In this document: positions 6,577 to 29,026 of the stretch, one piece after another
Numbering within the stretch: the first letter of the stretch is position 1
How the letters are laid out: every line of letters begins with the position of its first letter
Assembly: GCF_000940845.1 (NCBI RefSeq)
Contig: NZ_CP010341.1
Coordinates: 1,830,001 to 1,862,000, forward strand
From: Propionibacterium freudenreichii subsp. freudenreichii
GTDB taxonomy: Bacteria; Actinomycetota; Actinomycetes; Propionibacteriales; Propionibacteriaceae
Length of the DNA stretch: 32,000 nt
Direction: 5' to 3'
Translations under genes and position numbers: made by a program
Notes under the pieces: generated by a model
The model's input: the letters and a program-made list of their open reading frames with translations, nothing else
Database searches by the model: none
Told to the model about the DNA's origin: nothing

Positions 6577-6753
6577 CACGGCTCCTGTCCGGCCGGCATG
6601 GCGTCGGCGCAACGTCAGACTAATCAATCGCGTCACCCGGCCGGCGCGAGGTCCACGACACATCCCGCGAGTAGCCGATCCGGGTGGTTCCCGCCCCTCC
6701 GGGCACGCGGGAGCGGACGTGCCGACGGCGGTGGAACCCGCGACAATGGGGCC

Positions 6754-7871: not shown

Positions 7872-7896
7872 CCTGCGTCCCGAGCCCGCCGGACGT

Positions 7897-10829: not shown

Positions 10830-10877
10830 CCGCGCCGGCGTCCGCGGACGTTTTGGGGCCGGTGGGACAATGGTGGG

Positions 10878-11582
10878 ATGCACGTTATCGGGGTCCAGCG
10901 GGTGGACAAGGCGCCTGTTGTTCGCCTACCCGTGGGGCATGGCGAGGATCCCCGTGTGTTGCTGTGGCATCGCGGCTGGGTCGTCTCGCGCTGGCTGTCC
11001 GCCACCGGAGCGGACGAGGAGCTCGTGGTCACGGCGCAGGTGCGACAGCGCACGGCCACTTCACGCACGCCCCGTCGCCGCGGGCACCGGCAGGATCCCG
11101 ACCTGGTGGTGGCGCCCGGAGAAGTGCCCACCAAGCGTCAGCGCGTTGCCGCCTACGCGATCGTGCGCTCACATCGCGGGTTGCTCGGCACGATCTGCAG
11201 CGATCGCACAGCCGTGCCCGGACGTTGGCAGCTGCCCGGAGGGGGTCTGGAGGCCTCCGAGACGTCAAGCCAGGCGGTGATCCGCGAGGTGCGCGAGGAG
11301 ACCGACCAGTCGGTGGCGCTGCGTCGCCTTGTCGACCTGCAGTCCGACCACTGGGTGGGACGCGCCCCGAACGGTCGGCTGGAGGACTTCCAGGCCATCC
11401 GCATCATCTATACGGCGGTCTGCACGGCCCCCACCGAGCCCGAGGTGCTCGACGTGGGCGGCACCACTGAGGCATCGCACTGGGTGTCGCTGCGGGGCTG
11501 GCGTTCGCTGCCCTGGACGTCCAGTGCCCGCTCCGCCCTCGACCGACACGTGGACGAACTCAGCGGCCTGTTCGCGCGCTGA
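10878..11582 (+). CDS. NUDIX hydrolase with an ~85-aa N-terminal extension
   Basis: The Nudix box is GGGLEASETSSQAVIREVREETDQ (GX5EX7REUXEEXGU). The ATG at 10878 follows GGTGGG. The start is not certain. Confidence 0.8.
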   Translation: MHVIGVQRVDKAPVVRLPVGHGEDPRVLLWHRGWVVSRWLSATGADEELVVTAQVRQRTATSRTPRRRGHRQDPDLVVAPGEVPTKRQRVAAYAIVRSHRGLLGTICSDRTAVPGRWQLPGGGLEASETSSQAVIREVREETDQSVALRRLVDLQSDHWVGRAPNGRLEDFQAIRIIYTAVCTAPTEPEVLDVGGTTEASHWVSLRGWRSLPWTSSARSALDRHVDELSGLFAR

Positions 11583-11667
11583 TCGGCCACGCCGACGCCG
11601 CTGCTCGCGCGTCGCGGCGCATCACCCTGCGCCGGTTTCCCGCAACGCACGCGTCCCCGAACGCTCG

Positions 11668-11701
11668 CATCCCGCCGTCCCCTGTCGGGATCGGCGGGAT
11701 G
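11668..11701. terminator. Strong hairpin between the convergent NUDIX and BI-1 genes
   Basis: The outer stem catcccgccg / cggcgggatg is 10 bp. An inner tccc/ggga stem with a 1-nt bulge extends it, around the 5-nt loop ctgtc. There is no T-tract on either strand. Confidence 0.45.
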
Positions 11702-11756
11702 TGCAGCAAGCAGGTGGGCATGCAGTCCGCGAGGACCGTGGGGGGTCGGCGCGTGA

Positions 11757-12569
11757 TCAGTTACGGAAGAAGCTCAGGATGCGCAACAGGTTGGTGTACA
11801 GCCACACCATGGTGACCATCAGGCCGAATCCGGCCCGCCACGATTCCTTGGCCGGCGCGCCCATGCGGACGCCCCGTTCGCATTCCTCGAAGTCCATGAG
11901 CAGGCTCGCCACGGCCAGCACCACGCCGATGGCGGCGAACAGCCAGCTGAGGGCACCCGCGCCGGCACCGATGTTGAAGAAGCCCAGATTCACCCCGAAC
12001 AGCAGGGCGATCAGGTTGATGCCGGCCACCACCGCGTAGCCGATGATCGAGAAGATGAAGATCTTCTGCATGCGGCCGCTGATGCGGGCGCCGAAGGTGC
12101 GGTAGGCGAACAGCGTGACGGCCGCGGCAGCGAAGGTGCCCAGCACGGCCTGGCCCACGATGCCGGGGTAGATGCTCTCCATCACCTGGCTGAATGCCCC
12201 GATGAGGATGCCCTCGAACACGGTGTAGGCCATGATCGCGGGCACCGAGGTGCTGCGACGCACGGTCACCAGGATGGCGGCGACCAGGGCGATCACCGAT
12301 GACCCGAGAGCCAGGGGCAGGGCCATCGCCGGGTTGACGGCGGTGAACATCCAGGCGGCCGCGGCCACTGCCACGAGGATCACGAACAGCGTGGCGGTCT
12401 TGGCGATCACATCGTTCATCGTCATGCGGGCCGCGGGCCGCGACGGGCCCGGGTATCCGCCGGGCGGATAGGACGCCTCCTGATACGCCGCGTCGACGTA
12501 CTGCTGACCCGCTTGGCCAGCGGGGACGAAGGCGTCCGGCCTGGTCAGTACTGGGTTGCTGCTTCGCAC
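11757..12569 (-). CDS. Bax inhibitor-1/YccA family membrane protein
   Basis: The GTG at 12569 lies 6 nt after GGAG. The N-terminus (SSNPVLTRPDAF) is followed by 7 TM helices and the C-terminus YTNLLRILSFFRN, which is typical of BI-1 family proteins. Confidence 0.85.
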   Translation of the reverse strand: MRSSNPVLTRPDAFVPAGQAGQQYVDAAYQEASYPPGGYPGPSRPAARMTMNDVIAKTATLFVILVAVAAAAWMFTAVNPAMALPLALGSSVIALVAAILVTVRRSTSVPAIMAYTVFEGILIGAFSQVMESIYPGIVGQAVLGTFAAAAVTLFAYRTFGARISGRMQKIFIFSIIGYAVVAGINLIALLFGVNLGFFNIGAGAGALSWLFAAIGVVLAVASLLMDFEECERGVRMGAPAKESWRAGFGLMVTMVWLYTNLLRILSFFRN

Positions 12570-12705
12570 CTGTGCTCCGATCTGAGAAATGGGCCCGACA
12601 GGGCCGGGTCGATCCCACCAAGGCTACCCAGTGGCCCTTCGGCGGCCAATGATGAGCCGGCCCGGCTCACACCCAACTGTCCCTGATTTCGCCGTCATCC
12701 GGTGA

Positions 12706-13455
12706 TCAGCGCCGGGCGTCGATCAGGTGTCGCGAGGAGTGGTCGACGAAGGACCTTCCGGCGCGTAGTTGCGCGTCGAGGCACACCAGTTGGTCGTGAT
12801 ACTTGTCCGGCGAGAAGTCAGGCACCCACCAGGGGCACTTGCGCAGGATCCAGACGATGGCCCCGATGTCGAAGTACTCGATGCGCAGGGTCGCGGTGAG
12901 CAGGGACTCGATGTGGAGTCCGGCGGCCTGCGCCTGTGCCGCTTCGACATGCGGGTCGCGGCGCTTCCGGTTCTCCGGCAGCGGGCCGAGGAAATACTCG
13001 ATGAGCTCGAACGACGAGGCCGGCCCCACGTGCTGGGCGAAGTAGTGGCCGCCGGGTTCCAGCACCCGCGCGATGTCGCGCCAGTCCGGCTTCACCGGAT
13101 GGCGGGAGGTCACCAGGTCGAAGCTGGCGTCGTCGAAGGGCAACGGATCATCCCCGGTGGTCTGCACGACCCTGACGCCGCGGGGCCCCAGCAGCTTCCG
13201 GGCGCGCTCCGCATTCGGCGGCCAGGATTCGGTGACCACCATCGTCGGTGGCAGCTGCGGGGCCTCGTTGACCACCTCTCCCCCGCCGGTGTCGATGTCC
13301 AGCGCGGCGTGTGCTCGGGCCAGTCGGCCCGCCAGCAGGCGTGCATATCCCCAGGGCGGACGCTCCTCGGTGGCGCGACCGTCGAGGAAGCCGAATCCCC
13401 ACCCGGTGATATCGGCACTCTGGGCTTCGGCAACCAGCTCAGCAAAGGGCCGCAT
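12706..13455 (-). CDS. Class I SAM-dependent methyltransferase
   Basis: I chose the ATG at 13455 (MRPFAELVAEAQ...). Motif I is ALDIDTGGGE, and the acidic loop VVVTESWPPN and DASFDLVTSRH are also present. The longer ORF reaching 13572 adds only Arg/Pro-rich sequence. Confidence 0.75.
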   Translation of the reverse strand: MRPFAELVAEAQSADITGWGFGFLDGRATEERPPWGYARLLAGRLARAHAALDIDTGGGEVVNEAPQLPPTMVVTESWPPNAERARKLLGPRGVRVVQTTGDDPLPFDDASFDLVTSRHPVKPDWRDIARVLEPGGHYFAQHVGPASSFELIEYFLGPLPENRKRRDPHVEAAQAQAAGLHIESLLTATLRIEYFDIGAIVWILRKCPWWVPDFSPDKYHDQLVCLDAQLRAGRSFVDHSSRHLIDARR

Positions 13456-13461
13456 CAGGTC

Positions 13462-13467
13462 ATTATC
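13462..13467 (-). promoter_or_regulatory. Candidate -10 box GATAAT, 6 nt upstream of the ATG (leaderless geometry)
   Basis: The minus strand reads ...GGGGGCGATAATGACCTG ATG. No Shine-Dalgarno sequence is present. Confidence 0.35.
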
Positions 13468-13757
13468 GCCCCCGGACGGCCATGGCGGTCGCGTCGCGCT
13501 GCGAGGCGGGCACCCGGTGATCGCGCTGGGCTTATCGACTCGTGGACGCAAAACCCTTGCCGCGTAAGGCACCGACGCGCAAAACTAGCAGGAGTTACGT
13601 GTTGCCGGCACTCACACCGGCCCGGACATTGCGACGCGCCTGCCTGCGCTCGTCGATGGTCGGCCACATTGGTCCGCCAGGTACCCGGGCCGGGCAGGAC
13701 GTGACGCCAAGCGACCGGGTCTCCCCCACCCCGGCCCCACCGCATCGGGAGGAACCA

Positions 13758-14531
13758 ATGAGCAAGCGACCGCACACCATCCTGGTTGTCGGAGCCACGG
13801 GAAGCGTCGGCCGCTTCGTGGTGGCCGAGGCCCTCAAGCAGGGCTATGCCACCCGAGCGTTGGTGCGCAACCTTGACAAGGCGAAGACCCTGCCCGAGGG
13901 TGCGCTGGCCGTGGTGGGCGACCTGACCGACGCCGCCACGCTAGACCGGGCACTTGCCGGAACCGACGCGGTGGTGTTCACCCACGGTTCGAACAGCACC
14001 GAGGAGCAGGCCGAGGCCGTCGACTACGGCGCGGTGCGCTCGGTGCTCACCGCCCTGGGCGATCGTTCGGTGCGGGTCGCCCTGATGACCGCGATCGGCA
14101 TGACCAAGCGCGACAGCATCTACAACAAGGAGAACCACGGACGCGACTGGAAGCGCCGCGGGGAGCGTCTGCTGCGCGCCAGCGGCCTCGAGTACACGAT
14201 CGTGCGTCCGGCCGCCTTCGACTACAACGCCCCCGACGCCCACAAGCTCGTGATGCGCCAGGGCGAGCACCCGAGCAATGGCGGCGTGGCCCGCGAGCAG
14301 ATCGCCCGCGTGCTGGTGGACGCCCTGAGCAACGACGCGGCGCGTCACAAGACCTTCGAATTGCTCGACACCACCGGCGAGGAGCAGGCCGACCTGACGC
14401 CCCTGTTCGCAGCACTGCAGCCCGATGAGCCGGCGGCGGCCGACGCGCCGGGCGACTCCGAGAACCTGCCCCTGTCCGATGAGCCGCAGCGCGTACTCGA
14501 CGACCTGAAGCGCCTCACCGACTACGAATAG
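13758..14531 (+). CDS. NAD(P)H-binding protein (NmrA-like / atypical SDR)
   Basis: The ATG at 13758 follows GGGAGGAACCA. The Rossmann motif ILVVGATGSVGRFV sits at the extreme N-terminus, and the overall pattern is that of the NAD(P)-binding domain family. Confidence 0.8.
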   Translation: MSKRPHTILVVGATGSVGRFVVAEALKQGYATRALVRNLDKAKTLPEGALAVVGDLTDAATLDRALAGTDAVVFTHGSNSTEEQAEAVDYGAVRSVLTALGDRSVRVALMTAIGMTKRDSIYNKENHGRDWKRRGERLLRASGLEYTIVRPAAFDYNAPDAHKLVMRQGEHPSNGGVAREQIARVLVDALSNDAARHKTFELLDTTGEEQADLTPLFAALQPDEPAAADAPGDSENLPLSDEPQRVLDDLKRLTDYE

Positions 14532-14582
14532 GCCGGCGCCTGTGGGCCGGCATCTGCCCGGCTCTGCCGACCAAGAACACCC

Positions 14583-14614
14583 GTGAAGCCGACGTCCCCG
14601 GACGTCGGCTTCAC
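14583..14614 (+). terminator. Intrinsic terminator hairpin (14-bp perfect stem, 4-nt loop)
   Basis: The sequence gtgaagccgacgtc-cccg-gacgtcggcttcac is followed by GTTTCAAG. It lies 52 nt after the SDR-like gene stop. Confidence 0.65.
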
Positions 14615-14747
14615 GTTTCAAGCATGTAACAACTGGATCGCGGCTCTTTCGTGCGCCCCACCGGGCCACTAGCGTTTGCTCGTTGCACGCACACCCCATC
14701 TGTCCGCGTCGGGTTCCCGGCGTTCCACGTACGAGGAGGGCTGAGCC

Positions 14748-16211
14748 ATGAACACGTCAGATCGCACTGCATCACCCCACGCGAACCCGCCAGCCCCCTC
14801 AGACGACGGCAAGGCGTCCCCGGCGCTGAAGCAGGTGATGGGGCCCGGACTGCTGTTGTTGTTCGTGGTGGGCGACATCCTGGGGACCGGCGTCTACGCC
14901 CTGACCGGGCAGGTGGCCGGCGAGGTGGGAGGCGCGGCCTGGTTGCCGTTCCTGATCGCCTTCGTGATCGCCATGATGACGGCACTGTCATACCTGGAGC
15001 TGGTCACCAAGTACCCGCAGGCGGCCGGCGCGGCCCTGTATGTGCACAAGGCGTTCGGGGTGCACTTCATCACCTTCATGGTGATGTTCACCGTCATGTG
15101 TTCGGGCATCACCTCGGCCAGCACGGCATCCCGGGCGTTCGCCGTGAACATGGTGCGCGGGCTCACCGGCTCCGAGCCGGCCGACAACAACCCGTGGCTG
15201 CTGGTGGTGGCGCTGGGCTTCATTTTCCTGGTGATGCTGATCAACCTGCGCGGGGTGGCCGAGGGCGTCAAGGCCAATGTGGTGCTCACGCTCATCGAGG
15301 TGTCAGGGCTGCTGCTGGTGATCTTCATCGGCCTGTGGGCGATCACCCAGGGTCGGGCCGACTGGAGCCAGGTGGTGGCCTTCCAGACCAGCTCGGAACG
15401 CAATACGTTCGTGGCGGTGACGGCCTCAACGTCGCTGGCGTTCTTCGCGATGGTCGGTTTCGAGGATGCCGTGAACATGGCCGAGGAGACCAAGGAACCG
15501 ACGCGCATCTTCCCCCGCATCCTGCTCAGCGGGCTGACCGTCACCGGTGTGATCTATGTGGTGATCGCCATCATCTCGGTTGCCCTGGTGCCGGTGGGCA
15601 ATCTTGCCGCGAGCGAGGCGCCGCTGGTTCTCGTGGTGGAAAACGCGGCACCCGGATTCCCGATCAACCAGCTGCTGCCCTGGATCTCCATGTTCGCGGT
15701 GGCCAACTCAGCGCTCATCAATATGCTCATGGCAAGTCGCCTCATCTATGGCATGGCCCAGCAGGATGTGTTGCCGGGCGTGCTGGCGCGCGTCTTGCCG
15801 GTGCGGCGCACGCCATGGACCGCCGTATTGTTCACCACCGCGATCGCCGCCGGGCTGATCCTGTATGTGAGCCTGGCGCGCGGCAGCGCAGTGGTCGGCC
15901 TGCTCGGCGGCACCACCTCACTGCTGCTGTTGGCCGTCTTCGCCGTGGTGAACCTGGCAGTGGTGGTCTTGAAGCGCGACCGGGTGGGGCACAAGCATTT
16001 TCGCACCAGCCGGATCGTCGCGATCGTGGCCTGCCTCCTGTGCCTATTCCTCGTGCTACCGGTGTCGGGGCGTCCGATTGGCCAGTATCAGATCGCCGGG
16101 GTGCTCATCGTGATCGGCGTGGCTCTGTGGGCGGTCACGGTGGTTATCAACAAGCGTGTTGGACGCACGGAGCTGAAGCATCCCGAGGACATCCCGCCCG
16201 AAGTGATCTGA
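14748..16211 (+). CDS. APC-family amino acid (or polyamine) permease
   Basis: The ATG follows GAGGAGGGCTGAGCC. The 487-aa product has about 12 TM helices. Its N-terminal signature (GPGLLLLFVVGDILGTGVYALTG) and overall pattern are typical of APC permeases. Confidence 0.85.
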   Translation: MNTSDRTASPHANPPAPSDDGKASPALKQVMGPGLLLLFVVGDILGTGVYALTGQVAGEVGGAAWLPFLIAFVIAMMTALSYLELVTKYPQAAGAALYVHKAFGVHFITFMVMFTVMCSGITSASTASRAFAVNMVRGLTGSEPADNNPWLLVVALGFIFLVMLINLRGVAEGVKANVVLTLIEVSGLLLVIFIGLWAITQGRADWSQVVAFQTSSERNTFVAVTASTSLAFFAMVGFEDAVNMAEETKEPTRIFPRILLSGLTVTGVIYVVIAIISVALVPVGNLAASEAPLVLVVENAAPGFPINQLLPWISMFAVANSALINMLMASRLIYGMAQQDVLPGVLARVLPVRRTPWTAVLFTTAIAAGLILYVSLARGSAVVGLLGGTTSLLLLAVFAVVNLAVVVLKRDRVGHKHFRTSRIVAIVACLLCLFLVLPVSGRPIGQYQIAGVLIVIGVALWAVTVVINKRVGRTELKHPEDIPPEVI

Positions 16212-16268
16212 ACGGGATGTCCACGCCATCGTTGGCCCGACGGGCGTCGTCACCAGGTGACCAGCACC

Positions 16269-17540
16269 TCAGCCAAGCCCGTAGGCAAGCTCGGGGTGGT
16301 CGGCGGCAATCTCCAGCAGCCGGTTGTATTTGGCCACGCGCTCGCCGCGTGCCGGTGCGCCTGACTTGATGTGCCCGCACCCGGTGGCGACCGCCAGGTC
16401 GGCGATAAAGGCGTCGGGCGTCTCCCCCGAGCGGTGCGACATGAACTGCCGATAACCGGCAGCGGCGCAGATGTTCATGGCGTCGAGGGTCTCGGTGACC
16501 GTGCCGATCTGGTTCAGCTTGATCAGCGACGCATTGGCCACATGACGCTCGATGCCCTTGCGGATGAGCTCGGGGTTGGTGCAGAAGATGTCGTCGCCAA
16601 CCAGCTCCACCCGGGAGCCGAGTTCGCGGGTGAGCTGCTGCCAGCCATCCCAGTCGTCTTCAGCCAAACCGTCCTCAAGCAGCCAGACCGGGTACCCGTG
16701 GACGATGGCCTGGTAGCGCTCGATCATCTGCGCACTGGTGAAGCTGCGCCCATTGACCAGATAGCGGCCATCAGCCTGACGGAACTCCGAGGACGCCGGA
16801 TCAATGGCGATGGCCACGCCCTCGAGGCCGGGGGTATAGCCAGCGTCACCGATCGCAGCCACGATTGTGTCGAGCGCCTGCTCGGGCTCGGCGAAATCGG
16901 GCGCGAACCCACCCTCGTCGCCCAGCCCAACGGGTTGGCCAGAGTCCTTGAGGCGGGCACGCAGGGCGGAGTAGATCTCAGAGCCTGCGCGCACCGCGTC
17001 CGTCATGGAGTCCATCCCGGTCGGGCAGATCATGAACTCCTGGAAGTCGAGCGGATTAGCCGCATGGACGCCCCCATTGAGCACATTGAAACAGGGCACC
17101 GGCAGGCGGGGCGGCTGGCCTCCGATTCCCGGGAGATATTCGAACAGCTCGTTGCCGCCGCTGGCCGCAAGCGCCCTGGTGAAGGCCATGGATACCCCCA
17201 GGATTGCGTTGGCGCCGAGCCGGGACTTGTTCGGGGTTCCATCCAGGGCCAGAAGGCTCTCGTCGAGTTCGCCGACGGACTCGAAGCGGCGCCCAACAAT
17301 GGCGTCGGCAATTTCATGGGTGACGTGGTCCACTGCGGCGAGAACGCCGAGTCCGCCGAAGCGATGTGGATCGTGATCGCGCAGTTCCACGGCCTCGTGT
17401 GTGCCAGTGGAGGCACCGGAGGGGACCATCGCCCGTGCGCGTGTGCCGTCGGACAGGGACAACCTGACCATCAGGGTGGGTCGGCTGCGCGAGTCCAAGA
17501 TTTCCATCGCGTCCAGCGTGGTGATTGTTTGACGTGGCAT
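16269..17540 (-). CDS. eno: Enolase paralog (second copy; all catalytic motifs intact)
   Basis: The ATG at 17540 follows GGGAGGGCACTC. Motifs present: [80 protein letters not shown]. Confidence 0.9.
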   Translation of the reverse strand: MPRQTITTLDAMEILDSRSRPTLMVRLSLSDGTRARAMVPSGASTGTHEAVELRDHDPHRFGGLGVLAAVDHVTHEIADAIVGRRFESVGELDESLLALDGTPNKSRLGANAILGVSMAFTRALAASGGNELFEYLPGIGGQPPRLPVPCFNVLNGGVHAANPLDFQEFMICPTGMDSMTDAVRAGSEIYSALRARLKDSGQPVGLGDEGGFAPDFAEPEQALDTIVAAIGDAGYTPGLEGVAIAIDPASSEFRQADGRYLVNGRSFTSAQMIERYQAIVHGYPVWLLEDGLAEDDWDGWQQLTRELGSRVELVGDDIFCTNPELIRKGIERHVANASLIKLNQIGTVTETLDAMNICAAAGYRQFMSHRSGETPDAFIADLAVATGCGHIKSGAPARGERVAKYNRLLEIAADHPELAYGLG

Positions 17541-17830
17541 GAGTGCCCTCCCGCGTGCTCGCGGACGGCCATGCGCATCGCGTGCCTGCTCGATGCGGGA
17601 TGCCCATGTCCATCCCTTGATTCAACGAACAGGAACTATCAGCAGGTCTGCGGTTCGGGCTCTTATGCCCCGGCGGGTCCCATCGCCGTTTTCAGGATAG
17701 TCCCGCGCATGTGCCCTGGAGCTTCTGATCGCGTGAAAGATTCCACCTCGCGCCTCTAATCATCGGGGAAGGCCGTGTGCCGTCGATGACGCTGCCGACA
17801 CCCACCAGCTGTTCCTGGTGTCTGCTCGCC

Positions 17831-18430
17831 TCAGGCCCTCTGCGCGAACTCCGACCAACCTGCCTCCAGGCGAGCCATGATGGCGTCAAGATCGGCCCGT
17901 GAGGCGTCCATGTCCGTGGCCGCGAGATCGGGGATCTGGAGCACGATGCGGGCCAGGGCGCGGATCACGGCGTCCTCCGGTCGCCCCACGATCCCGGCCA
18001 GCAGGGTGGTGAGCCCGGGCTCGCAGCGCTCCCACCGTTCCTTGGCGTAGGCGCGCAGCGGCGGAGCCTCGACCACCCGGCGCACGAAGGCCGATTGCGT
18101 GCCCGAGAAGGCACCGCGGTCACGGAAGAACTGGTGCAGGGCGTCCAGCACGCTCTGCCCGTCGGCCCGCGATTCGACGGCGGTAATGATCGACTGCATC
18201 CTCTCGTCGGCAGAGTCGACGTTGTCACCGAAGATCACGGCGTTCTTGCCGTCTGGGAAGTGTTTGAACAGCGTTGTCACTGCGGTATCGGCTTCCTCGG
18301 CGATGTCGACAACGGTGACAGCCTCATAGCCGCGCGCGAGCACCAGCCTGCGCGCGGCGGCGGTGAGCGCCGACGAGGTGGCGGCCTTCTTGCGTTCGCG
18401 ACGTCCCTGGCGTTCCGCTGTCTGACTCAT
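17831..18430 (-). CDS. TetR/AcrR-family transcriptional regulator (divergent from the MFS gene)
   Basis: The HTH region reads RRERKKAATSSALTAAARRLVLARGYEAVTVVDIAEEADTAVTTLFKHFPDGKNAV. I chose the ATG at 18430. An alternative in-frame ATG at 18469 would add 13 aa. Confidence 0.8.
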   Translation of the reverse strand: MSQTAERQGRRERKKAATSSALTAAARRLVLARGYEAVTVVDIAEEADTAVTTLFKHFPDGKNAVIFGDNVDSADERMQSIITAVESRADGQSVLDALHQFFRDRGAFSGTQSAFVRRVVEAPPLRAYAKERWERCEPGLTTLLAGIVGRPEDAVIRALARIVLQIPDLAATDMDASRADLDAIMARLEAGWSEFAQRA

Positions 18431-18436
18431 GGCCTC

Positions 18437-18487
18437 AGTGTACAGATCACGTTTGTGTAGCTCCTCCATTTATGTAGTGATTACACT
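18437..18487. promoter_or_regulatory. Candidate operator half-sites (gapped inverted repeat) in the TetR/MFS divergent intergenic region
   Basis: AGTGTAcagATCAC (18437-18450) and GTGATTACACT (18477-18487) are reverse complements apart from a 3-nt indel. Confidence 0.3.
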
Positions 18488-18533
18488 TTTGCAATGGCTG
18501 CGCATATGCTGTCGCTGCGAAAGGAAGTACGTC

Positions 18534-19961
18534 ATGACACAGACATTGACCGCCGTCGAGCCCACCACGAGCTCGCGGCTCGGCAGGCGCCTCTGGGCGA
18601 TCCTCGCGGTCGTCCTCATCGCGGACGCCATCGACCTGATGGATTCCACGATCATGAACATCGCAGCCCCGACGATCCAGCGCGAGATCGGCGGCGGGGA
18701 GGGCCTCATCAAGTGGCTCGGGGCCAGCTATGCGCTCGCGCTGGGCATCCTGCTCGTGGTGGGCGGGCGACTCGGCGACCGCTTCGGGCGCCGGCGGCTG
18801 TTCCTCATCGGCATCGCCGGATTCGGGGTCGCCTCGGTGTTGTGCGCGGTGGCCATCGATCCCGCGTTCCTCATTGCCGCCCGGCTGCTCCAGGGGGCCT
18901 TCGGCGCCCTGCTCATCCCGCAGGGCATCGGCATCCTCATCGCCACCTTCTCCCGTGAGCAGTTCCCCACGGCTGCCTCGATGTTCGGCCCCGTGCTCGG
19001 TGGGGCCTCGATCGTCGGCCCGATCCTGGCGGGATTCCTCGTCGGCGCCAATATCGGTGGCCTGACGTGGCGGCCCATGTTCCTCATCAACATCGTGCTG
19101 TGCGCGGCCGGGCTCATCGCCGGATGGAAGCTGTTGCCCCCGGATCGCGACCTGCAGAAGGTGTCCATCGACGGACTCGGCTCGGCACTGTTGGCAGTGG
19201 GCATGCTCGGCGTCCTGTTCGGACTCATCCAGGGCTCGACCAACGGGTGGACTGCGGTTCCCGTGATCTGCCTGGGCCTGGGTGTCGCCGGGTTCATCGG
19301 CTTCGCCCTGCGCCAACGCCTCGCGACGAATCCCCTCATCGTGCCGGCGCTGTTCCACAACCGTGGCTTCACGTCCGGGTTGCTCATCGGGCTGGGCTAC
19401 TTCGCGGTGGTCAACGGCTTCGCCTATGTGGTCTCGCTCTACTTCCAGATGCACCTGGGGCTCAGCCCGGTGGGTGCCGCGCTGGCCATGATGCCGATGA
19501 TGGTGGGCATCATCATCGCCTCCTTCGTGGCACGCCCGCTCATCCCGAAGCTGGGACGCAACCTCGTGGTGGCCGGCCTGGCCACCACCCTGGCCGGGAT
19601 CGTCGCCCTCATCGCCATCAGCATTGCGGCGGGAGACGCCACCAACCAGTGGATGCTCGCGCCGGCGATCCTCGTGCTCGGATTGGGCATGGGCGCGTCG
19701 TTCAGCAGCATCTACGACGTCGCGATCGGCGATCTCACGACGGACCTCGCCGGTAGCGCATCGGGTTCACTGTCGGCGGTGCAGCAGCTGGCCTCGGCCA
19801 TCGGCTCGGCGGTGGTCACCACGATCTACTTCCAGACCTCGGCAGCCGCCGACGCCAACCGACCCTTCATCGCCTCACTCGTCGTGGTCGGTGCCATCAC
19901 CGCCGTCTGCCTCATCGCCGCTCCCCTGCTGCCGAAGCGTGCCCCGCAGGACGCCCACTGA
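18534..19961 (+). CDS. MFS transporter, DHA2 (EmrB/QacA-like, ~14 TMS) drug:H+ antiporter family
   Basis: The ATG at 18534 follows AAAGGAAGTACGTC. The sequence LMDSTIMNIAAPTIQREIGG, motif A GGRLGDRFGRRRLFLIG, and the 475-aa length with ~14 hydrophobic segments all fit DHA2. Confidence 0.85.
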   Translation: MTQTLTAVEPTTSSRLGRRLWAILAVVLIADAIDLMDSTIMNIAAPTIQREIGGGEGLIKWLGASYALALGILLVVGGRLGDRFGRRRLFLIGIAGFGVASVLCAVAIDPAFLIAARLLQGAFGALLIPQGIGILIATFSREQFPTAASMFGPVLGGASIVGPILAGFLVGANIGGLTWRPMFLINIVLCAAGLIAGWKLLPPDRDLQKVSIDGLGSALLAVGMLGVLFGLIQGSTNGWTAVPVICLGLGVAGFIGFALRQRLATNPLIVPALFHNRGFTSGLLIGLGYFAVVNGFAYVVSLYFQMHLGLSPVGAALAMMPMMVGIIIASFVARPLIPKLGRNLVVAGLATTLAGIVALIAISIAAGDATNQWMLAPAILVLGLGMGASFSSIYDVAIGDLTTDLAGSASGSLSAVQQLASAIGSAVVTTIYFQTSAAADANRPFIASLVVVGAITAVCLIAAPLLPKRAPQDAH

Positions 19962-20014
19962 GCGGGCCGACATATCCGACAGAAAGTAGCCGGGCGCCAT
20001 CAATGAAATCACCA

Positions 20015-20037
20015 CCCCATCCCCACCCCAGCACCCC
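20015..20037 (-). other. G-quadruplex-forming motif G4-N4-G4-N1-G4-N2-G4 (C-rich on the plus strand)
   Basis: The plus strand ccccatccccaccccagcacccc corresponds to GGGGTGCTGGGGTGGGGATGGGG on the minus strand. Confidence 0.5.
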
Positions 20038-20056
20038 TCGAGTTTCCCCTCGGGAT

Positions 20057-20087
20057 TCTACGTAGTAGACTTGCTCTACGTCGTAGA
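20057..20087. promoter_or_regulatory. Two tandem 13-bp palindromic operator-like sites upstream of the ABC-2/TetR operon
   Basis: Site A is TCTACGTAGTAGA (20057-20069; 5-3-5 palindrome, also containing the perfect 8-mer CTACGTAG). Site B is TCTACGTCGTAGA (20075-20087; perfect 6-1-6 palindrome). The two 13-mers differ at a single position and start 18 bp apart. Site B overlaps a -10-like TAGAGT located 19 nt before the ATG at 20109. Confidence 0.6.
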
Positions 20088-20108
20088 GTTACGACGGATG
20101 GAGCACGA

Positions 20109-21043
20109 ATGTTGGTAGCCAAGGGAATCATCAAGTCGTATGGGAACCTCAAGGTTCTCCGCGGCGTCGATCTGTCGGTCGAGCGAGGGCAAATTCTTGG
20201 CCTCATGGGGGTGAATGGGGCGGGCAAGACGACACTGATTTCGATCCTTGCCGGACTGACGCGGCCGGATGCCGGCGACGTGCACATTGGGGGCGTGGAT
20301 CTGCTTCGTCACCGCCGCCAGGCCGCCCGGCATATCGGGGTCGCCCCACAGGCGTTGGGCATCTACCCGACCCTGACGGTGCAGGAGAACCTGGATTGCT
20401 TTGCGGGGCTGGCTGGTTACTCCGGTCGGAAGGCCCGTTCCCGGACTGCTGAGATCGCGCGGTTGATGGGTCTGCAGGATCTGCTCGACCGGCCCGCAGG
20501 TCACCTCAGCGGTGGCCAACAGCGGCGTCTGCATACCGGGATGGCGCTTCTGGGTCACCCGGACGTCTTGTTCCTGGACGAGCCGACAGTCGGCTCGGAT
20601 GTGCAATCACGCGAGGTGCTGCTCAGCATCGTCACACATATGGCGAATGAGGGCACCGCCGTGATCTATACGACGCACTACCCCGCTGAGCTTGAGCAGT
20701 TGGATGCAACCATCAACGTGCTCGTCAACGGCAGGATCACGGTGACCGGCAGTGTCCAGGAAGTCACCGGGCAGTGGGCCTCATCATCGATATTCCTTCA
20801 TTTCCGGGGCAAGACACCGCGGAAGTGGACGGGTGGAAGGAAGACCGCGGCGGACTGGTTCCAATCCGGCCGGTCAGCGATCCCGGTCAGATGCTCGGCC
20901 AGACATTGAGCACGCTCGGGGCTGCTGCGGGCGGTCTGGACGATGTACGCATCACCCGTCCCAGCCTCGAGGCGGCGTATCTGGCGATCACGGGCGACCA
21001 TGCGCTTGCGGAAAAGGAGGCCAGCGATGTCGTTGCTGCCTAG
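20109..21043 (+). pseudogene. ABC transporter ATP-binding protein (DrrA-like, ABC-2 type), apparently frameshifted near 20780-20790
   Basis: Frame 0 (20109 onward) encodes Walker A GVNGAGKTT, the signature LSGGQQRRL, Walker B VLFLDEPT, and the H-loop TTHY. After ...VQEVTGQWASS it degenerates into basic junk up to the stop at 20909. Frame 2 (open from 20696, ending at TAG 21041-21043) encodes the expected C-terminal domain ...IIDIPSFPGQDTAEVDGW...VRITRPSLEAAYLAITG and overlaps the permease start as usual. Confidence 0.6.
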
Positions 21044-21800
21044 CATGTCGATTGCCAGAACTACCTGGAGGCTGCAGCTGCGCGATCCTGGGTCGTCAGT
21101 AATCATGACCCTCCTGCCGCTCATCCTCGTGCCGCTGCTGAACCCCAGCGCGAAGGCACAGCTGATCCTGTCCGGATATCCGAACGCCAGCGGTGCCGAG
21201 CAGACGGTGCCTGGGCTCGCCATATTGTGCGCGTTCCTGTCCGTTGAGCAGGTCACCACCTTGTTCTTCCGCGAACATGCGTGGGGAACATGGGACCGGC
21301 TGCGCGCCAGCGCGGCGTCCACTGCCGACATCGTGACAGGCAAAGTTGTTGTCCGCTTCCTGATTCAGCTCGCTCAGACTGCCATCGTCTTCGCCGTGGG
21401 TGCGCTCATCTTCGGTTACCGTCCCAACGGCTCGGTGCTCGCGATCGGTATCGTCGTGATCGTGTTCACCGCCATGCTCGTCGCCTTTGGCGTGATGCTT
21501 GTCGCGCTGTTTCGCACCATGGATCAGGCCGATACGGTCGGAATGCTCGTGGGCATGCTCCTGGCCGGCCTGGGCGGCGCCCTGGCACCTGTCGCGTCGT
21601 TCCCCGGCTGGGTGCAATCGCTGGCCCACGTCAGCCCCGCCTTCTGGGTGTTGGACGCCCTGCGCCGCCTCACCCTGGACAGCGCACACCTGACTGACGT
21701 GATGCCCGCGATAATCGGCACGCTCGCCTTTACCGCCGGGTTCGCACTGATTGCCGCCGTCAGCTTCCGCTCCAATGCCGTGAAAGTAGGCACCACATGA
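21027..21800 (+). CDS. ABC-2 type transporter permease
   Basis: The ATG at 21027 follows AAAAGGAGGCCAGCG. The 257-aa product has 6 predicted TM helices and the typical N-terminus ARTTWRLQLRDPGSSVIMTLLPLIL. It overlaps the frame-2 end of the ATPase by 17 nt. Confidence 0.8.
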   Translation: MSLLPSMSIARTTWRLQLRDPGSSVIMTLLPLILVPLLNPSAKAQLILSGYPNASGAEQTVPGLAILCAFLSVEQVTTLFFREHAWGTWDRLRASAASTADIVTGKVVVRFLIQLAQTAIVFAVGALIFGYRPNGSVLAIGIVVIVFTAMLVAFGVMLVALFRTMDQADTVGMLVGMLLAGLGGALAPVASFPGWVQSLAHVSPAFWVLDALRRLTLDSAHLTDVMPAIIGTLAFTAGFALIAAVSFRSNAVKVGTT

Positions 21801-22435
21801 GTACGAGTGGGCGTCCCATGCGCCCGACCCTGTCCCGGGACTACATCCTTCACACTGCATTGCACATCGTGGACCGTGACGGTTCCGACAAACTCACCAT
21901 GCGCCGGCTGGGCACCGAGCTTGGCGTAGATCCGATGGCCATTTACCACTATGTGCCGAACAAGGCCGCCCTGTTCGACGGCATTGCCGAGACGATCTGG
22001 TCATCGCTCGACCTGGGCGTCCCGAGCCCGGACGAAAGCTGGCAGCAGCAACTCATCGCCGCCATGCGCGCCTTGCGTGGAGTCCTGCGGGCGCACCCGA
22101 ACGCGGTCGCCCTCGTCGGCACCCGGCCCGTAACCAGCCCCGAGCTCCTAACCGTCATAGAGCAACTGCTCGGCTTTCTCACCGAGGCGGGCATGCCTGC
22201 AGACGCTGATACGGCCGATCTGCTGAGCACCCTGGTCAACTACACGATCGGCCAAGTCCTCGCAGAGGTCGGCGAGCCGGTCGGAGCAGAGTCAGCCCCA
22301 GCCAATTACCAGGCCCTGTCTCCCCAGACCCACCCACATCTGAGCGCCCTGCTGAACAACGGCTGGACTTACGATCCGGACGCCCAGTATGACCACGGTC
22401 TCAACGCCCTGCTCGCAGGCTGGCGCCAGACCTGA
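21797..22435 (+). CDS. TetR-family transcriptional regulator (last gene of the ABC-2 operon)
   Basis: The ATG overlaps the permease stop (ATGA). The HTH region reads LSRDYILHTALHIVDRDGSDKLTMRRLGTELGVDPMAIYHYVPNKAALF, and a TetR-type C-terminal domain follows. Confidence 0.85.
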   Translation: MSTSGRPMRPTLSRDYILHTALHIVDRDGSDKLTMRRLGTELGVDPMAIYHYVPNKAALFDGIAETIWSSLDLGVPSPDESWQQQLIAAMRALRGVLRAHPNAVALVGTRPVTSPELLTVIEQLLGFLTEAGMPADADTADLLSTLVNYTIGQVLAEVGEPVGAESAPANYQALSPQTHPHLSALLNNGWTYDPDAQYDHGLNALLAGWRQT

Positions 22436-22549
22436 CACCCCCACGCGAACACGGTTCCTTGCATATCCAGATCCAGGGACCCATCGGCCGCCTCAGCGAG
22501 TGCCATCTCCGGTCCAAGACCAGCGCTGGCCTCACATGTAGCGGGGTCG

Positions 22550-22622
22550 TGCCCCCAGCGGGATTCGAACCCGCACTGGAGCGGGTTTAAGCCGCCTGCC
22601 TCTGCCGTTGGGCTACGGGGGC
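22550..22622 (-). tRNA. 73-nt tRNA, anticodon UAA (nominally Leu/UUA) but with class-I architecture (5-nt variable loop); isotype uncertain
   Basis: Hand-folded cloverleaf of the reverse complement: GCCCCCG TA GCCC AACGGCAG AGGC A GGCGG CTTAAAC CCGCT CCAGT GCGGG TTCGAAT CCCGC TGGGGGC A. The T-loop is the canonical TTCGAAT. No CCA is encoded. Confidence 0.85.
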
Positions 22623-22630
22623 CCGGAAAC

Positions 22631-22636
22631 AGACTA
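22631..22636 (-). promoter_or_regulatory. Candidate -10 box TAGTCT (TANNNT), 8 nt upstream of the tRNA 5' end
   Basis: The minus strand reads ...CCGATTAGTCTGTTTCCGG|GCCCCCG. Confidence 0.3.
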
Positions 22637-22731
22637 ATCGGCGGCACCCACACGCGCGACACGAACCGGGACAACCAGGGCCAACCGGCGATTCACCGGA
22701 CCTGCCCACCAAGACGGCCCAGGCCCGTGCG

Positions 22732-23688
22732 CTAGTCGGCGCTGATCGCCTGTCCCTTGCCGTCCACCAGCATGCTCAACGCGATGCCATCGAGGATGTC
22801 GGACTCGCTCACCACGAGTTCGGGTGCCCCCACGCGGGAGGCGACCTCCTCGACGATCAGGGCCCCGGCGCACAACACCTCGGCACGCTGCGGCTGCACG
22901 GGCCCCCAGCTGACCACCTCGGACACGGTGGCACCCAGCAGCCGATCAGCCACCTCGTGCACCGCTGCCTGGCTCAACACCGAGCCGTGCACGCGCGAGC
23001 GGTCGTAGCGGCGCAGGTGCTGTGCAAGGGCGGACATGGTGGTCACGGTGCCGGCCACGCCGATGAAGGTGCGGATGTCGGACAGCTCCACCCCGCTCGA
23101 GTCGAGCTCGGAGCGCACCAACTGCCGGGCACGGGCGATCTCGTCGGCCGTGGGCGGGTCAGAGCGCAGGATGCGCTCGCGCAGTCGCCGGGAACCGATG
23201 TTGAGGCTCACCGACGCGTCGATGTGGGCCAGGTCCGCGCCCGCGCCGACGCCGCGCACCAGCTCGGTGGATCCCCCACCGGAGTCCATCACCAACACCG
23301 GGTCGGCCTTGGACCGGATGCCCGACAGGGCCCCCCGGAAACTCAGGTGCGCCTCTTCCTGCCCCGACACCACCTCGGCGTTGATGCCCAGCCGGGCGCG
23401 CACCCCACGGAACAGCTCGTCGCGGTTCTGGGCGTCGCGGGTGGCCGAGGTGGCCACGAAGCGTCCCCGCTCGCAGTCGAGGTCGGCAATGATCTCGTTG
23501 AACTGCTCGCAGGCGTCGAACGCGCGGTTGAGGGCATCGGGGGCGAACAGGCCGGTGGCGTCGACGCCCTGACCCAACCCCACGAACAACAGCCTGCGGT
23601 CGTATTCGTGCAGCGATCCATCGGGGTTGAGGCTTGCCACGAACAACCTCATCGTGTTCGTTCCGCAGTCGATCGCCGCAACCCTCAT
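22732..23688 (-). CDS. ppx: Ppx/GppA-family phosphatase (exopolyphosphatase-like)
   Basis: The N-terminus is the ASKHA-fold motif MRVAAIDCGTNTMRLFVA. Also present are ATSATRDAQN and the DSGGGSTE phosphate loop. The start overlaps the stop of the upstream DUF501 gene by 4 nt. Confidence 0.85.
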   Translation of the reverse strand: MRVAAIDCGTNTMRLFVASLNPDGSLHEYDRRLLFVGLGQGVDATGLFAPDALNRAFDACEQFNEIIADLDCERGRFVATSATRDAQNRDELFRGVRARLGINAEVVSGQEEAHLSFRGALSGIRSKADPVLVMDSGGGSTELVRGVGAGADLAHIDASVSLNIGSRRLRERILRSDPPTADEIARARQLVRSELDSSGVELSDIRTFIGVAGTVTTMSALAQHLRRYDRSRVHGSVLSQAAVHEVADRLLGATVSEVVSWGPVQPQRAEVLCAGALIVEEVASRVGAPELVVSESDILDGIALSMLVDGKGQAISAD

Positions 23689-24200: not shown

Positions 24201-24279
24201 TCTCCAATTGTGGCACGACCGAAAAACGGCATGCGCCGGACGGAGCTCGCCTCGGGTCCGCGACGCGGCGGTGGGCCGG

Positions 24280-24921
24280 TCAGCCTCCGCTGGTTGGCGC
24301 GGCGCTGGGTCCCACGACCCGTTCGATCCGACTCGGCGTCGGCGTCTCGGTGGGCTTGTCAGCGCTCTTGTTGCTGTCCCATGCGCGCTGCCACCACGCC
24401 TCTGCCTGCTGTGCCCCGACGCCGGTGCGGTCGATCTTGGCCCCGCCGCCGTAGGGGTCGCCGTTGGCATCCACCACCTGGTAGCCGGTCTCGCCGGGCA
24501 TCACCCAGCCGAGCCTGCTGCGCGCCTGGGCCCGCACATAGTCCGGGTCGTTCCAGCGCTGCTGCTCGTTGTCAAGCTGGCTGATGTGCTCCTGGCTGGA
24601 CGCGATGGCCGCCCTGGCCTGGGATATCTGCTGGCGCTGGTCGACGTAGACCCGCAGGCTGGTGATCAGCGAGATGATCAGCACCGCCACGATCGCCAGG
24701 ACGGCGGCCAACCGCCGGGTCATGCGGGCGCCGGTGCGGGCGACCGGGCCGGTTGCCTCGTTGCCCGACTCGTCGCCCTCGGCACCCGAGCTCGTCTGGG
24801 TCTCCAGGCGGGCGCGTTCATGCGAGCTGCGACGCGAGGTGCGCGCTGCGGTGCGGGTGCTGGGGGTGTCGCCCGCCGAGGGGGGCGCACTGCGGCGCCG
24901 GCTGGAACGGGACGAGACCAT
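24280..24921 (-). CDS. Septum formation initiator family protein (FtsB/DivIC-like)
   Basis: A single TM segment (LAAVLAIVAVLIISLITSL) is followed by a coiled coil (RVYVDQRQQISQARAAIASSQEHISQLDNEQQRWNDPDYVRAQARSRLGWVMPGE). The N-terminal region is basic and disordered. The start is uncertain (ATG at 24921 chosen; other in-frame starts exist up to 25029). Confidence 0.75.
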   Translation of the reverse strand: MVSSRSSRRRSAPPSAGDTPSTRTAARTSRRSSHERARLETQTSSGAEGDESGNEATGPVARTGARMTRRLAAVLAIVAVLIISLITSLRVYVDQRQQISQARAAIASSQEHISQLDNEQQRWNDPDYVRAQARSRLGWVMPGETGYQVVDANGDPYGGGAKIDRTGVGAQQAEAWWQRAWDSNKSADKPTETPTPSRIERVVGPSAAPTSGG

Positions 24922-25198: not shown

Positions 25199-26500
<1,302 letters not shown>

Positions 26501-27927: not shown

Positions 27928-27933
27928 CCTAGC
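27928..27933. repeat. 6-bp target-site duplication CCTAGC (left copy)
   Basis: An identical hexamer sits immediately outside each IS terminus. It fits the NCTAGN target known for IS481. Confidence 0.8.
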
Positions 27934-28930
27934 TGTACTTCCCCGTGACGTTGTGAACGCGGGCTGAGGGAGTCTGGCCGCCGATCCCGGTGTGGGGTCT
28001 GTGGTGATTGTAGTGATGGAGCCAGGTCTCGTAGGCTGCGGCGCGCTCGGCTTCGCTGGCGTAGGGCTTCGCGTAGGCCCACTCGACGGCGAGGGTTCGG
28101 TTGAACCGCTCGACCTTGCCGTTGGTCTGCGGCCGGTATGGCCGGGTCCACTTGTGCTTCACCTCGTCGCCGAGCGCGTCAGCGAAGGCGCCTGACCGGT
28201 AGCAGGAACCGTTGTCGGTCATCACCGCGGTGACTGTGACGCCCAGGCCTGCGAAGAACGCGTTCGCGCGGGTCCAGAACCCCGCTGCGGTCTCTTTGCG
28301 CTCGTCGTCAAGGATCTCTGAGTACGCGATCCGGGAGTGGTCGTCCACGGCGTGGTGCAGATACCGGTAGCCGCGAGAGCCGGCTGCCCCGGCACGGGCT
28401 GCCTTGTCGCGGGCCACTCCCGCGTGACGGTCCTGCATGGATCCGCGACCGTGGGCACGCCACCCGCCGCCGTCGGGGATCCGGCCTTGTTTCTTGATAT
28501 CTACGTGCACGAGCTGGCCCGGCGCGGCGACCTCGTACCGTGTCGGCTTCGGGCGGCGAACCGGCAGCCCGGTGGCCTGGTCGATGTTGATCAGCTTCGG
28601 CATCTTGTATCGGGCGAGCACCCGACCGACCGTGGAACGGTGCAACCGCAGGTGATACGCGATCCGGTGCGGACCCCACCGGCGAGTGAACCGCAACGCG
28701 ACGATCCGATGCTCCGTCTTACGCGAAAGCCGGTTCGGTGACGAGGTGGGCCTCGAACTACGGTCGATCAACGGCAGCCCTGCCCGGTACCTGTCGGCCC
28801 ACCGCTTCACCGTCGCGGGCGAGCACTGGAACCGTTCCGCCGCCCGCCGCAACGACCAGCCCTGTTCCACGACGAGAACAGCAAGACGACGACGCCCTTC
28901 CGGTGTCAAGGGTGCGTTAGCGTGAGTCAC
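27929..28930 (-). CDS. IS481-family DDE transposase
   Basis: The GTG at 28930 follows GGAGGTCTTC. There is an N-terminal HTH (GWSLRRAAERFQCSPATVKRWADRY). The DDE triad contexts are LVHVDIKK, AVMTDNGSCY and PQTNGKVERFNRTL. The ORF reads through the terminal IR, and its TAG (27929-27931) lies in the flanking target duplication. Confidence 0.9.
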   Translation of the reverse strand: MTHANAPLTPEGRRRLAVLVVEQGWSLRRAAERFQCSPATVKRWADRYRAGLPLIDRSSRPTSSPNRLSRKTEHRIVALRFTRRWGPHRIAYHLRLHRSTVGRVLARYKMPKLINIDQATGLPVRRPKPTRYEVAAPGQLVHVDIKKQGRIPDGGGWRAHGRGSMQDRHAGVARDKAARAGAAGSRGYRYLHHAVDDHSRIAYSEILDDERKETAAGFWTRANAFFAGLGVTVTAVMTDNGSCYRSGAFADALGDEVKHKWTRPYRPQTNGKVERFNRTLAVEWAYAKPYASEAERAAAYETWLHHYNHHRPHTGIGGQTPSARVHNVTGKYS

Positions 28931-29026
28931 GAAGACCTCCGTGGTCAGGAGAGTGAGTGTGGTAACCCACATCCTGCCCGGAGGTCTTCGCTACCTCACC
29001 CGTTCACAACCTCCCGGGGAAGTACA
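27934..29026 (-). mobile_element. IS481-family insertion sequence, complete (1093 bp)
   Basis: The terminal inverted repeats are TGTACTTCCCCGTGACGTTGTGAACG (27934 onward) and the reverse complement of the right end, TGTACTTCCCCGGGAGGTTGTGAACG, matching at 24 of 26 positions. The element carries a single DDE transposase ORF and is flanked by 6-bp CCTAGC direct repeats. Confidence 0.9.

Follow-up and report, generated by a model that had tools for sequence, protein, structure and literature searches.

A predicted TetR-controlled ABC-2 efflux cassette beside tRNA-Leu in Propionibacterium freudenreichii: probable horizontal origin, exchange by recombination and decay

How did a three-gene cassette of low G+C content come to lie beside the 3′ end of a tRNA-Leu gene in Propionibacterium freudenreichii, and which function could it serve there? 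The question was addressed in a 32-kb stretch of P. freudenreichii DNA (the window, whose coordinates are used throughout), in which an inspection of the letters without database searches, hereafter the sequence-only reading, had noticed genes for an ATPase, an ABC-2 permease and a TetR regulator and had proposed an old or decayed, horizontally acquired efflux or immunity module. Our analysis points, with a probability of roughly 80%, to a self-contained, TetR-autoregulated ABC-2 efflux operon of the DrrAB type, which was acquired horizontally as accessory DNA, is exchanged by recombination and is broken in this strain. Gene content, operator conservation, composition, a presence/absence polymorphism, a recombination tract and a frameshift are the observations that carry this reading.

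The cassette comprises the following genes:

20109-21043, plus strand: DrrA-like ABC ATPase, a pseudogene in this strain (Pfam ABC_tran, 4e-34; the intact allele encodes 310 aa)
21027-21800, plus strand: ABC-2 (DrrB-like) permease of 257 aa (Pfam ABC2_membrane, PF01061, 7e-25), preceded by its own ribosome-binding site AAAGGAGG
21797-22435, plus strand: TetR-family repressor of 212 aa (TetR_N plus TetR_C_1; PF00440, 3e-7; PF02909, 9e-20), last gene of the operon

Pfam domains and gene overlaps confirmed the three-gene unit with overlapping start and stop codons. The permease start (21027) overlaps the ATPase stop of the intact frame (21043) by 17 nt, and 4 nt are shared by the permease stop and the start of the TetR gene (ATGA, 21797-21800). 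The best NCBIfam match of the ATPase is TIGR01188 drrA, with 218 bits below the cut-off of 312, and its nearest solved nucleotide-binding domains are ABCA-type. The permease matches the DrrB models TIGR00025/TIGR01247 weakly (44-54 bits). The regulator scores 93 bits with the NCBIfam TetR model, below the cut-off of 265; its closest solved relatives are 3bqy, TetR classes A/D, ActR and SimR (1e-12 to 1e-21). The limits first proposed for the cassette, 19962-22549, lie within 10 nt of the real boundaries given below (19972-22544), but the stretch 19962-20108 ahead of the ATPase gene, which begins at 20109, is intergenic and holds a predicted regulatory site that had been overlooked.

Decay of the module was borne out by a lesion that had likewise escaped the sequence-only reading. 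Alignment with 10 strains located a 2-bp insertion, CG, at 20818-20819 of the ATPase gene, producing a +2 frameshift; the frameshifted open reading frame (ORF) stops at 20909 after 266 aa, and the C-terminus (…DDVRITRPSLEAAYLAITG…) is read in another frame to 21043. Upstream of the frameshift, the Walker A, signature, Walker B and H-loop regions are intact. Lost are the last ~74 residues, including the motif PSLEAAYLAITG in which the C-terminal extension ends and which resembles the LDEVFL motif of DrrA; the equivalent region of DrrA is needed for assembly with DrrB. Because the ATPase is truncated before its C-terminal domain, the pump, judged from its sequence, is most likely inactive in this strain and the repressor an orphan, with the permease and TetR genes intact. 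The same CG insertion is common to three independent assemblies (L081, L100 and L103), a separate 1-bp deletion at 20289 interrupts the gene in L082, and the frame is intact, with 310 aa, in most strains (L084-L090, L097, L098, L101 and L104-L106); JS13-2 and LT618780 exemplify the intact allele, LT604998 and LT618781 the CG insertion. The second frameshift, a cassette-less allele and a fused ATPase-permease gene in the related loci L109/L110, the latter two described below, are three further signs of lesion; such damage in P. freudenreichii and relatives suggests weak selection on the module.

In the intergenic stretch, two elements were recognised:

20057-20069, plus strand: predicted operator O1, palindrome TCTACGTAGTAGA, a match to TCTACNNNGTAGA
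20075-20087, plus strand: predicted operator O2, palindrome TCTACGTCGTAGA, whose right arm is the -10-like hexamer TAGAGT, 22 nt upstream of the ATPase start

These are the only two matches to TCTACNNNGTAGA in the whole 32 kb, where 0 are expected; both are perfect palindromes and lie no more than 60 nt before the ATPase start. The motif was present in 21 of 22 non-redundant upstream regions of related cassettes, in 2-3 copies each and with 18-bp phasing, amounting to 49 sites in 3.3 kb of cassette upstream regions versus 0 in the other 152 kb of the same loci. In several relatives, a TTGACT/TTGACA hexamer stands ahead of the first palindrome and the right arm TAGAGT/TAGAAT is able to act as a -10 element, so that an overlap of operator and promoter can reasonably be assumed. 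We predict the palindromes TCTACnnnGTAGA to be TetR binding sites. A literature search for the operator sequence returned unrelated papers only, and a terminator scan of 19.8-22.8 kb gave one chance-level terminator, inside the ATPase gene.

In the mechanism we propose, TetR dimers would sit on the two 13-bp palindromes (TCTACnnnGTAGA, 18 bp apart), overlapping the -10 region upstream of the ATPase gene, until released by a small molecule, probably an aromatic or polyketide-like antibiotic; the ATPase/permease pair would then export the same compound. As to origin, an actinobacterial source of lower G+C content would have supplied the module, which would have settled between the MFS gene and the tRNA-Leu(UAA) 3′ end in the lineage of P. 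freudenreichii. Its later exchange, among P. freudenreichii strains and with a sister species, would have run through homologous recombination in its flanks, without an integrase.

Base composition sets the cassette apart. The G+C content is 63.5% in 19962-22549 versus 67.9% in the whole window, and the lowest values of the 32 kb were found in 2.3-kb intervals starting at 19651-20051, i.e., in the cassette. The G+C fraction at third codon positions (GC3) of its genes is 0.70-0.80 (pooled 0.774), compared with a mean of 0.865 (sd 0.037, minimum 0.794) for 25 other genes of the window, giving z = -2.5. Earlier hand counts of 69/120 G+C at 20109-20228 in the ATPase gene and 79/120 at 18534-18653 in the MFS gene are exact. 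The accompanying claim of more A/T-ending and rare codons holds overall: A/T-ending codons make up 22.6% in the cassette versus 12.9% elsewhere (Fisher p = 1.9e-12), and six named rare codons together 4.0% versus 2.3% (p = 0.007), with ATA, AAA and TTG responsible but GGA without enrichment. The codon-usage profile is thus measurably different from that of the flanking genes and does not refute a foreign origin. For the MFS gene, the GC3 value is 0.90 versus 0.77 for the cassette, a difference that speaks for different histories and hence for a cassette once inserted between the MFS gene and the tRNA.

Composition also bears on the alternative that the operon is native and vertically inherited, with a weak codon bias from poor expression, and was deleted in some strains (those resembling JS15, see below) and lost in other Propionibacterium. 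In favour of it, the cassette GC3 (0.77-0.80) overlaps that of the lowest native genes (g6163, 0.79; the second enolase gene eno2, 0.80), and neither mobility genes nor att sites are present. Low GC3 is not intrinsic to the cassette family, since the copy in a Pseudonocardiaceae metagenome-assembled genome (MAG), L091, has a host-like GC3 of 0.88-0.92. The nearest relative checked for composition, L096, lies on a contig of 62-64% G+C and resembles the window copy in its cassette GC3 of 0.78-0.83; L109/L110, nearer still with 81% permease identity, likewise have 64% G+C.

Related cassettes were collected by exact-protein look-ups and a metagenome scan, and every cassette with at least ~47% permease identity and a TetR gene downstream showed identical gene order and overlaps. 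Operator array and gene order recur in ~20 cassettes from unrelated Actinomycetota, including the Pseudonocardiaceae MAG, a Bifidobacterium MAG and other metagenome contigs, all in unrelated genomic contexts; pilus genes, UDG, amylase and a chromate transporter were encountered around the copies in L094, L096 and L109. Beyond P. freudenreichii, permease identities are 81% and 75% (metagenome contigs with unrelated neighbours), 67% (Pseudonocardiaceae MAG) and 64% (Bifidobacterium MAG), followed by 57-58% in Microbacterium and Micromonospora. The same pattern was seen for TetR, which is 58% identical to a Nocardiopsis protein. No other Propionibacteriaceae were named among the permease and TetR matches, and the nearest named homologues thus fall outside this family, as expected of an acquired module. 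BaxI, a protein encoded left of the cassette, gives a vertical series: 85% identity to the sister lineage, 68% to P. cyclohexanicum, 57% to P. acidifaciens, 54% to Brooklawnia and 45% to Microlunatus. Ppx, encoded to the right, is at most 50% identical to Pseudonocardiaceae among the matches listed. That the nearest other homologues of the cassette belong to Pseudonocardiaceae, Bifidobacterium and Nocardiopsis at 58-67%, above the Ppx identity to such groups, argues against vertical inheritance.

Synteny agrees with this, the cassette not being conserved at its position across the family. The interval between tRNA-Leu and BaxI has a different make-up in each species sampled. It is absent from the syntenic tRNA-Leu site in P. 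cyclohexanicum, where tRNA-Leu and BaxI are ~1 kb apart, and in P. acidifaciens and an uncultured Propionibacterium, where the interval holds UDG plus an MFS/TetR pair; in a Propionibacteriaceae MAG, tRNA-Leu and BaxI are directly adjacent. Orthology between the MFS/TetR pair at this site in P. acidifaciens and the uncultured species and the pair in the window was considered and ruled out, identity being only ~30%.

As to the relatives themselves, the closest cassettes outside P. freudenreichii (L109 and L110, 2347-3774) are flanked by alpha-amylase and chromate-transporter genes; their ATPase lacks residues ~164-244 and continues in frame into the permease, giving a 475-aa ORF, which represents a further decayed copy. 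In L091, the cassette (5466-8017) lies 1 kb downstream of a crcB fluoride-channel gene. A link to fluoride resistance, based on this crcB gene and on a fluoride riboswitch 2.5 kb away in the window, was rejected as coincidence because the other contexts show no such link and L091 has no riboswitch at the gathering score. A tblastn search with the permease against PLSDB revealed no plasmid vector, the best match being 39% identical.

Within P. freudenreichii, strain contexts were gathered via exact-protein look-ups with window proteins as queries; proteins identical to the TetR and Ppx of the window are present in dozens of assemblies (LT6187xx, CDAC01, CP116039 and others). The cassette is missing in 5 of 22 long, Ppx-anchored contigs, namely L099, three similar contigs and L102 (CP018002). 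Accession LT618788 (L099) belongs to JS15, the type strain (DSM 4902; PMC5644110). The comparison defined the following features:

19972-22544 (2573 bp): variable segment with the entire cassette; blastn and alignment of L099 and L102 with the window break at 19971/19972 and 22544/22545
19441-19971: left flank dense in single-nucleotide polymorphisms (SNPs), at the MFS 3′ end, with 18 of the 39 L099-window differences (in 19441-19967)
22545-22702: right SNP-dense flank, comprising tRNA-Leu and the spacer towards ppx, with 17 differences in 158 bp (in 22548-22702)
22549-22622, minus strand: tRNA-Leu(UAA) (ARAGORN; Rfam, 53.6 bits), whose 3′ end faces the cassette

The differences are concentrated at the segment, with a single one in the 8.2 kb to the left (11247-19440) and three in the 1.9 kb beyond the right flank. 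In place of the 2573 bp, cassette-less strains carry 68 unrelated bp, found only in L099 and L102; read on the tRNA strand, these form a strong terminator-like hairpin, with a stem of 12 bp and a T run behind it. Similarity between this spacer and the cassette allele, which would have marked it as a remnant, was not significant (local alignment score 25; mean 22 ± 4 after shuffling). In all 18 informative loci, each of the two flank haplotypes goes with one cassette state without exception (20 were examined, two of which had no match on one flank). Such a pattern marks a single import by homologous recombination across the cassette indel; the 68 unrelated bp and the SNP-dense flanks are not those of a clean deletion, contrary to what a native operon lost from some strains would have left. 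Cassette-bearing and cassette-less strains also differ at both ends of the tRNA-Leu acceptor stem (22551 and 22616), one allele having G1-C72 with G7·U66 and the other G1·U72 with A7-U66, so that the tRNA gene itself lies within the exchanged tract. Using these stem variants in outgroups (L001, L002, L013 and L107) to polarise the event gave a mixed, uninformative picture. The JS15-type flank does not stem from the L107-like sister lineage: at 12 sites the window equals L107 and at six sites L099 does, a split that points to a third lineage. Elsewhere, 19 SNPs in ~520 bp separate JS15-type strains from the window at 10724-11246 (orf_9870/NUDIX), probably another recombination tract, next to 8 kb that are otherwise nearly identical.

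The sister lineage (L107/L146), with 92% amino-acid identity in Ppx, has the same gene order and cassette junctions as the window. Left of tRNA-Leu, this order is the three-gene cassette, MFS, TetR1, a second enolase, an amino-acid permease, an NmrA-like protein, a methyltransferase and BaxI, with these coordinates:

14748-22544: lower-GC block of amino-acid permease, fluoride riboswitch/eno2, TetR1, MFS and cassette (0.63-0.685 G+C in the composition profile)
18534-19961: MFS gene (DHA2-type), left neighbour of the cassette
17831-18469: TetR1, divergent to the MFS gene
16269-17540, minus strand: second enolase eno2, behind a fluoride riboswitch
11757-12569: BaxI

Presence at the same junctions in the sister lineage is what a native operon would show, but the degree of similarity is not. 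At the nucleotide level, L146/L107 and the window are 95-96% identical over the cassette, 92-95% over TetR1/MFS, 91-94% over eno2 and ~90% over the amino-acid permease, versus 73-85% in core genes on both sides and 78-85% in the adjacent ppx/DUF501/ftsB. The block of elevated identity (~14.8-22.5 kb) coincides with the lower-GC stretch. As the cassette is both its most similar and its most compositionally deviant part, it is probably the most recent layer of the block. The description of the MFS gene as native-looking consequently applies to its composition, but the gene belongs to this ~8-kb block, which was exchanged with the sister lineage and is missing in other Propionibacterium species. 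The module can hardly be called old either, being still polymorphic within the species and 95-96% identical to the sister-species copy. Four independent lines, namely composition, phyletic pattern, synteny and sister-lineage identity, thus support horizontal acquisition, and we regard a native, vertically inherited operon as very unlikely.

The position beside the tRNA raises a further alternative, namely that the cassette is the remnant of an integrase-mediated island in the tRNA-Leu 3′ end, the integrase and att sites of which have since eroded. A distance of 115 nt between cassette and tRNA 3′ end had been given; the adjacency holds, but counted from the TetR stop there are 113 nt between the two. 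The cassette indel stops 5 nt short of the 3′ end of the tRNA. Within 5 nt of this end lie two independent strain-specific breakpoints, at 22544/22545 (cassette indel) and 22552 (an island in L085). The shared breakpoint, the atypical composition and the strain-variable presence beside a tRNA are traits of an island. Yet neither the window nor ~20 other strain loci contain an integrase or recombinase gene between BaxI and ppx. The 25-nt tRNA-Leu 3′ end, searched with up to three mismatches, has a single match in the window, itself, and direct or inverted repeats across 11.5-23 kb are at chance level, with none flanking the cassette. The earlier statement that neither an integrase nor a convincing att repeat can be seen was therefore correct. 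Furthermore, the cassette occupies non-tRNA contexts elsewhere, and the polymorphism is bounded by a homologous-recombination signature. An eroded island is thus very unlikely. The tRNA 3′ side, invoked as the classical side of integration, is indeed a hot spot of plasticity, but there is no sign of integrase-mediated insertion; with integrase and att repeat lacking, the locus is best read as exchanged by homologous recombination within a plasticity zone beside the tRNA.

The island of L085 (GCA_044990475.1, JBJDUL010000014.1, 10757-20639), before which the match to the window breaks off 3 nt into the tRNA 3′ end, encodes a small helix-turn-helix (HTH) protein, a Hachiman system made up of HamB (1659 bits) and HamA (325 bits), and an RmrA-like HTH/M78 peptidase protein; the 10 kb examined are free of tRNA, ppx and integrase genes. 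In LT618792 (L090/L106), an IS481-family element, 99.8% identical to the insertion sequence in the window, is located between tRNA-Leu and ppx (~22731-22736). Neither an integrase nor a repeat derived from the tRNA accompanies the cassette indel, the L085 island or this element in the sequence covered.

Which known systems does the cassette resemble? DrrAB-type pumps are classic producer-immunity genes, and a self-immunity exporter of a secondary-metabolite or bacteriocin cluster was therefore considered. In L091, a graspetide-like ATP-grasp/methyltransferase pair does lie 3-5 kb downstream of the cassette. However, no biosynthetic genes stand beside the P. freudenreichii cassette, the neighbours of which are MFS, tRNA and ppx, the contexts in L094, L096 and L109 are unrelated, and the characterised Streptomyces coelicolor analogues stand alone, making this the least probable of the explanations, one we consider extremely unlikely. 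Like DrrAB of Streptomyces peucetius (TIGR01188/TIGR01247), the cassette shows the ABC-2 architecture, a single ATPase gene and behind it a single gene for a six-helix permease, the two overlapping translationally. It differs in its scores (218 versus 312 bits for the ATPase, 44 versus 223 bits for the permease), in having no biosynthetic cluster and in its frameshifted ATPase. With TetR/tetO of Tn10-type tetracycline resistance, it shares the TetR_N plus TetR_C_1 family, tandem palindromic operators, here predicted, over an efflux promoter and the form of a compact mobile module; it differs in that the pump is an ABC instead of an MFS transporter, the regulator is co-transcribed instead of divergent and the score is 93 versus 265 bits. 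Nothing points to tetracycline as the ligand, in contrast to Tn10 TetR. Common to the cassette and tRNA-linked genomic islands are the tRNA 3′ side, the atypical composition, the presence/absence variation and the breakpoint shared with the L085 island; in contrast to them, the cassette has no integrase and no att direct repeats, measures only 2.6 kb and appears to be exchanged via flanking homology.

The arrangement also resembles that of three sets in S. coelicolor/lividans (SCO1718/SCO1719-20, SclR/SclAB = SCO4358-60, and SCO5384-82), in which a TetR gene lies beside genes for a DrrA-like ATPase and a DrrB-like permease, with two 5′ palindromic operators and no biosynthetic cluster. In S. 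coelicolor, the repressor of each of the three TetR plus DrrAB-like sets binds two palindromes and represses its own pump only; loss of the repressor leads to multidrug resistance, and horizontal spread was suggested (bioRxiv 10.1101/2022.11.11.516236). The regulator is divergent in these sets, whereas the cassette TetR is the last operon gene with a 4-nt overlap and the operators are phased by 18 bp in 2-3 copies (TCTACnnnGTAGA). The cassette is thus an uncharacterised stand-alone TetR-regulated DrrAB-type efflux operon, a kind of operon that is already known.

Several points weigh against the preferred reading of an acquired, recombining efflux operon. The compositional deviation is moderate (z ~ -2.5, from 25 genes of one 32-kb window) and on its own might stem from weak expression. 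For the nearest homologues, the taxon labels derive from MAG annotations. A sigma-70 consensus scan of 19.8-22.8 kb found no promoter, and repressor binding, inducer and substrate are predictions from sequence; the substrate is not transferable from the DrrA, DrrB and TetR models of NCBIfam, all of which scored below cut-off. Lastly, the evidence on gain or loss within the species points both ways: finding the cassette at the same junctions in the sister lineage favours presence being older, and the cassette-less allele, with its well-formed tRNA terminator, looks like the original empty site.

Turning to the surroundings, a conserved actinobacterial block, mfd-mazG-eno-ftsB-DUF501-ppx, forms the right side of the locus, followed by tRNA-Leu(UAA). 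An IS481-family transposase gene (27929-28972, minus strand) between mazG/orf177 and mfd is strain-specific, being absent in most strains and reversed in orientation in L082. ARAGORN called an 83-nt tRNA-Pro(UGG) at 24261-24343 on the plus strand, within the DUF501/ftsB coding region, which is very likely a false positive; Rfam made no call at the gathering score, and the same ARAGORN call appeared in other strains. The fluoride riboswitch RF01734 (17623-17696, minus strand; 36.7 bits, gathering score 34) lies directly upstream of eno2, which is only ~52% identical to the housekeeping eno1 (25199-26488). Fluoride-controlled enolase paralogues are a known association. Riboswitch and eno2 fall within the exchanged 14.8-22.5 kb block, and the riboswitch before eno2 is also kept in JS15 (L099) and the sister lineage (L146). 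In L084 (GCA_001369075.1), a 2-bp deletion near the MFS 3′ end (~19951-19952; 509-aa call) and a truncated eno1 call (295 aa) are either strain-specific or assembly errors.

As a food-grade organism of cheese and vitamin B12 production, P. freudenreichii is among the bacteria in which transferable resistance determinants come under scrutiny. The locus adds a strain-variable efflux operon that is exchangeable between species and has a clear predicted regulatory site. The inactivation record comprises two independent frameshifts and one cassette-less allele in P. freudenreichii and the internal deletion in L109. Tentatively, and with considerable doubt, the cassette might represent an uncharacterised, Actinomycetota-wide family of resistance modules defined by ATPase, permease and TetR genes downstream of the 18-bp-phased TCTACnnnGTAGA array, which would respond to one natural-product ligand, spread between species with no mobility gene and solely through homologous recombination in plasticity zones beside tRNAs, and become inactivated through relaxed selection after the move to dairy niches. 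The naturally intact, frameshifted and absent alleles allow phenotypes to be compared. The locus further offers a worked example of cassette turnover at a tRNA-adjacent hot spot via flanking homology instead of an integrase. The operator motif and the natural allelic series are the reusable products of what is otherwise ordinary accessory-genome biology.

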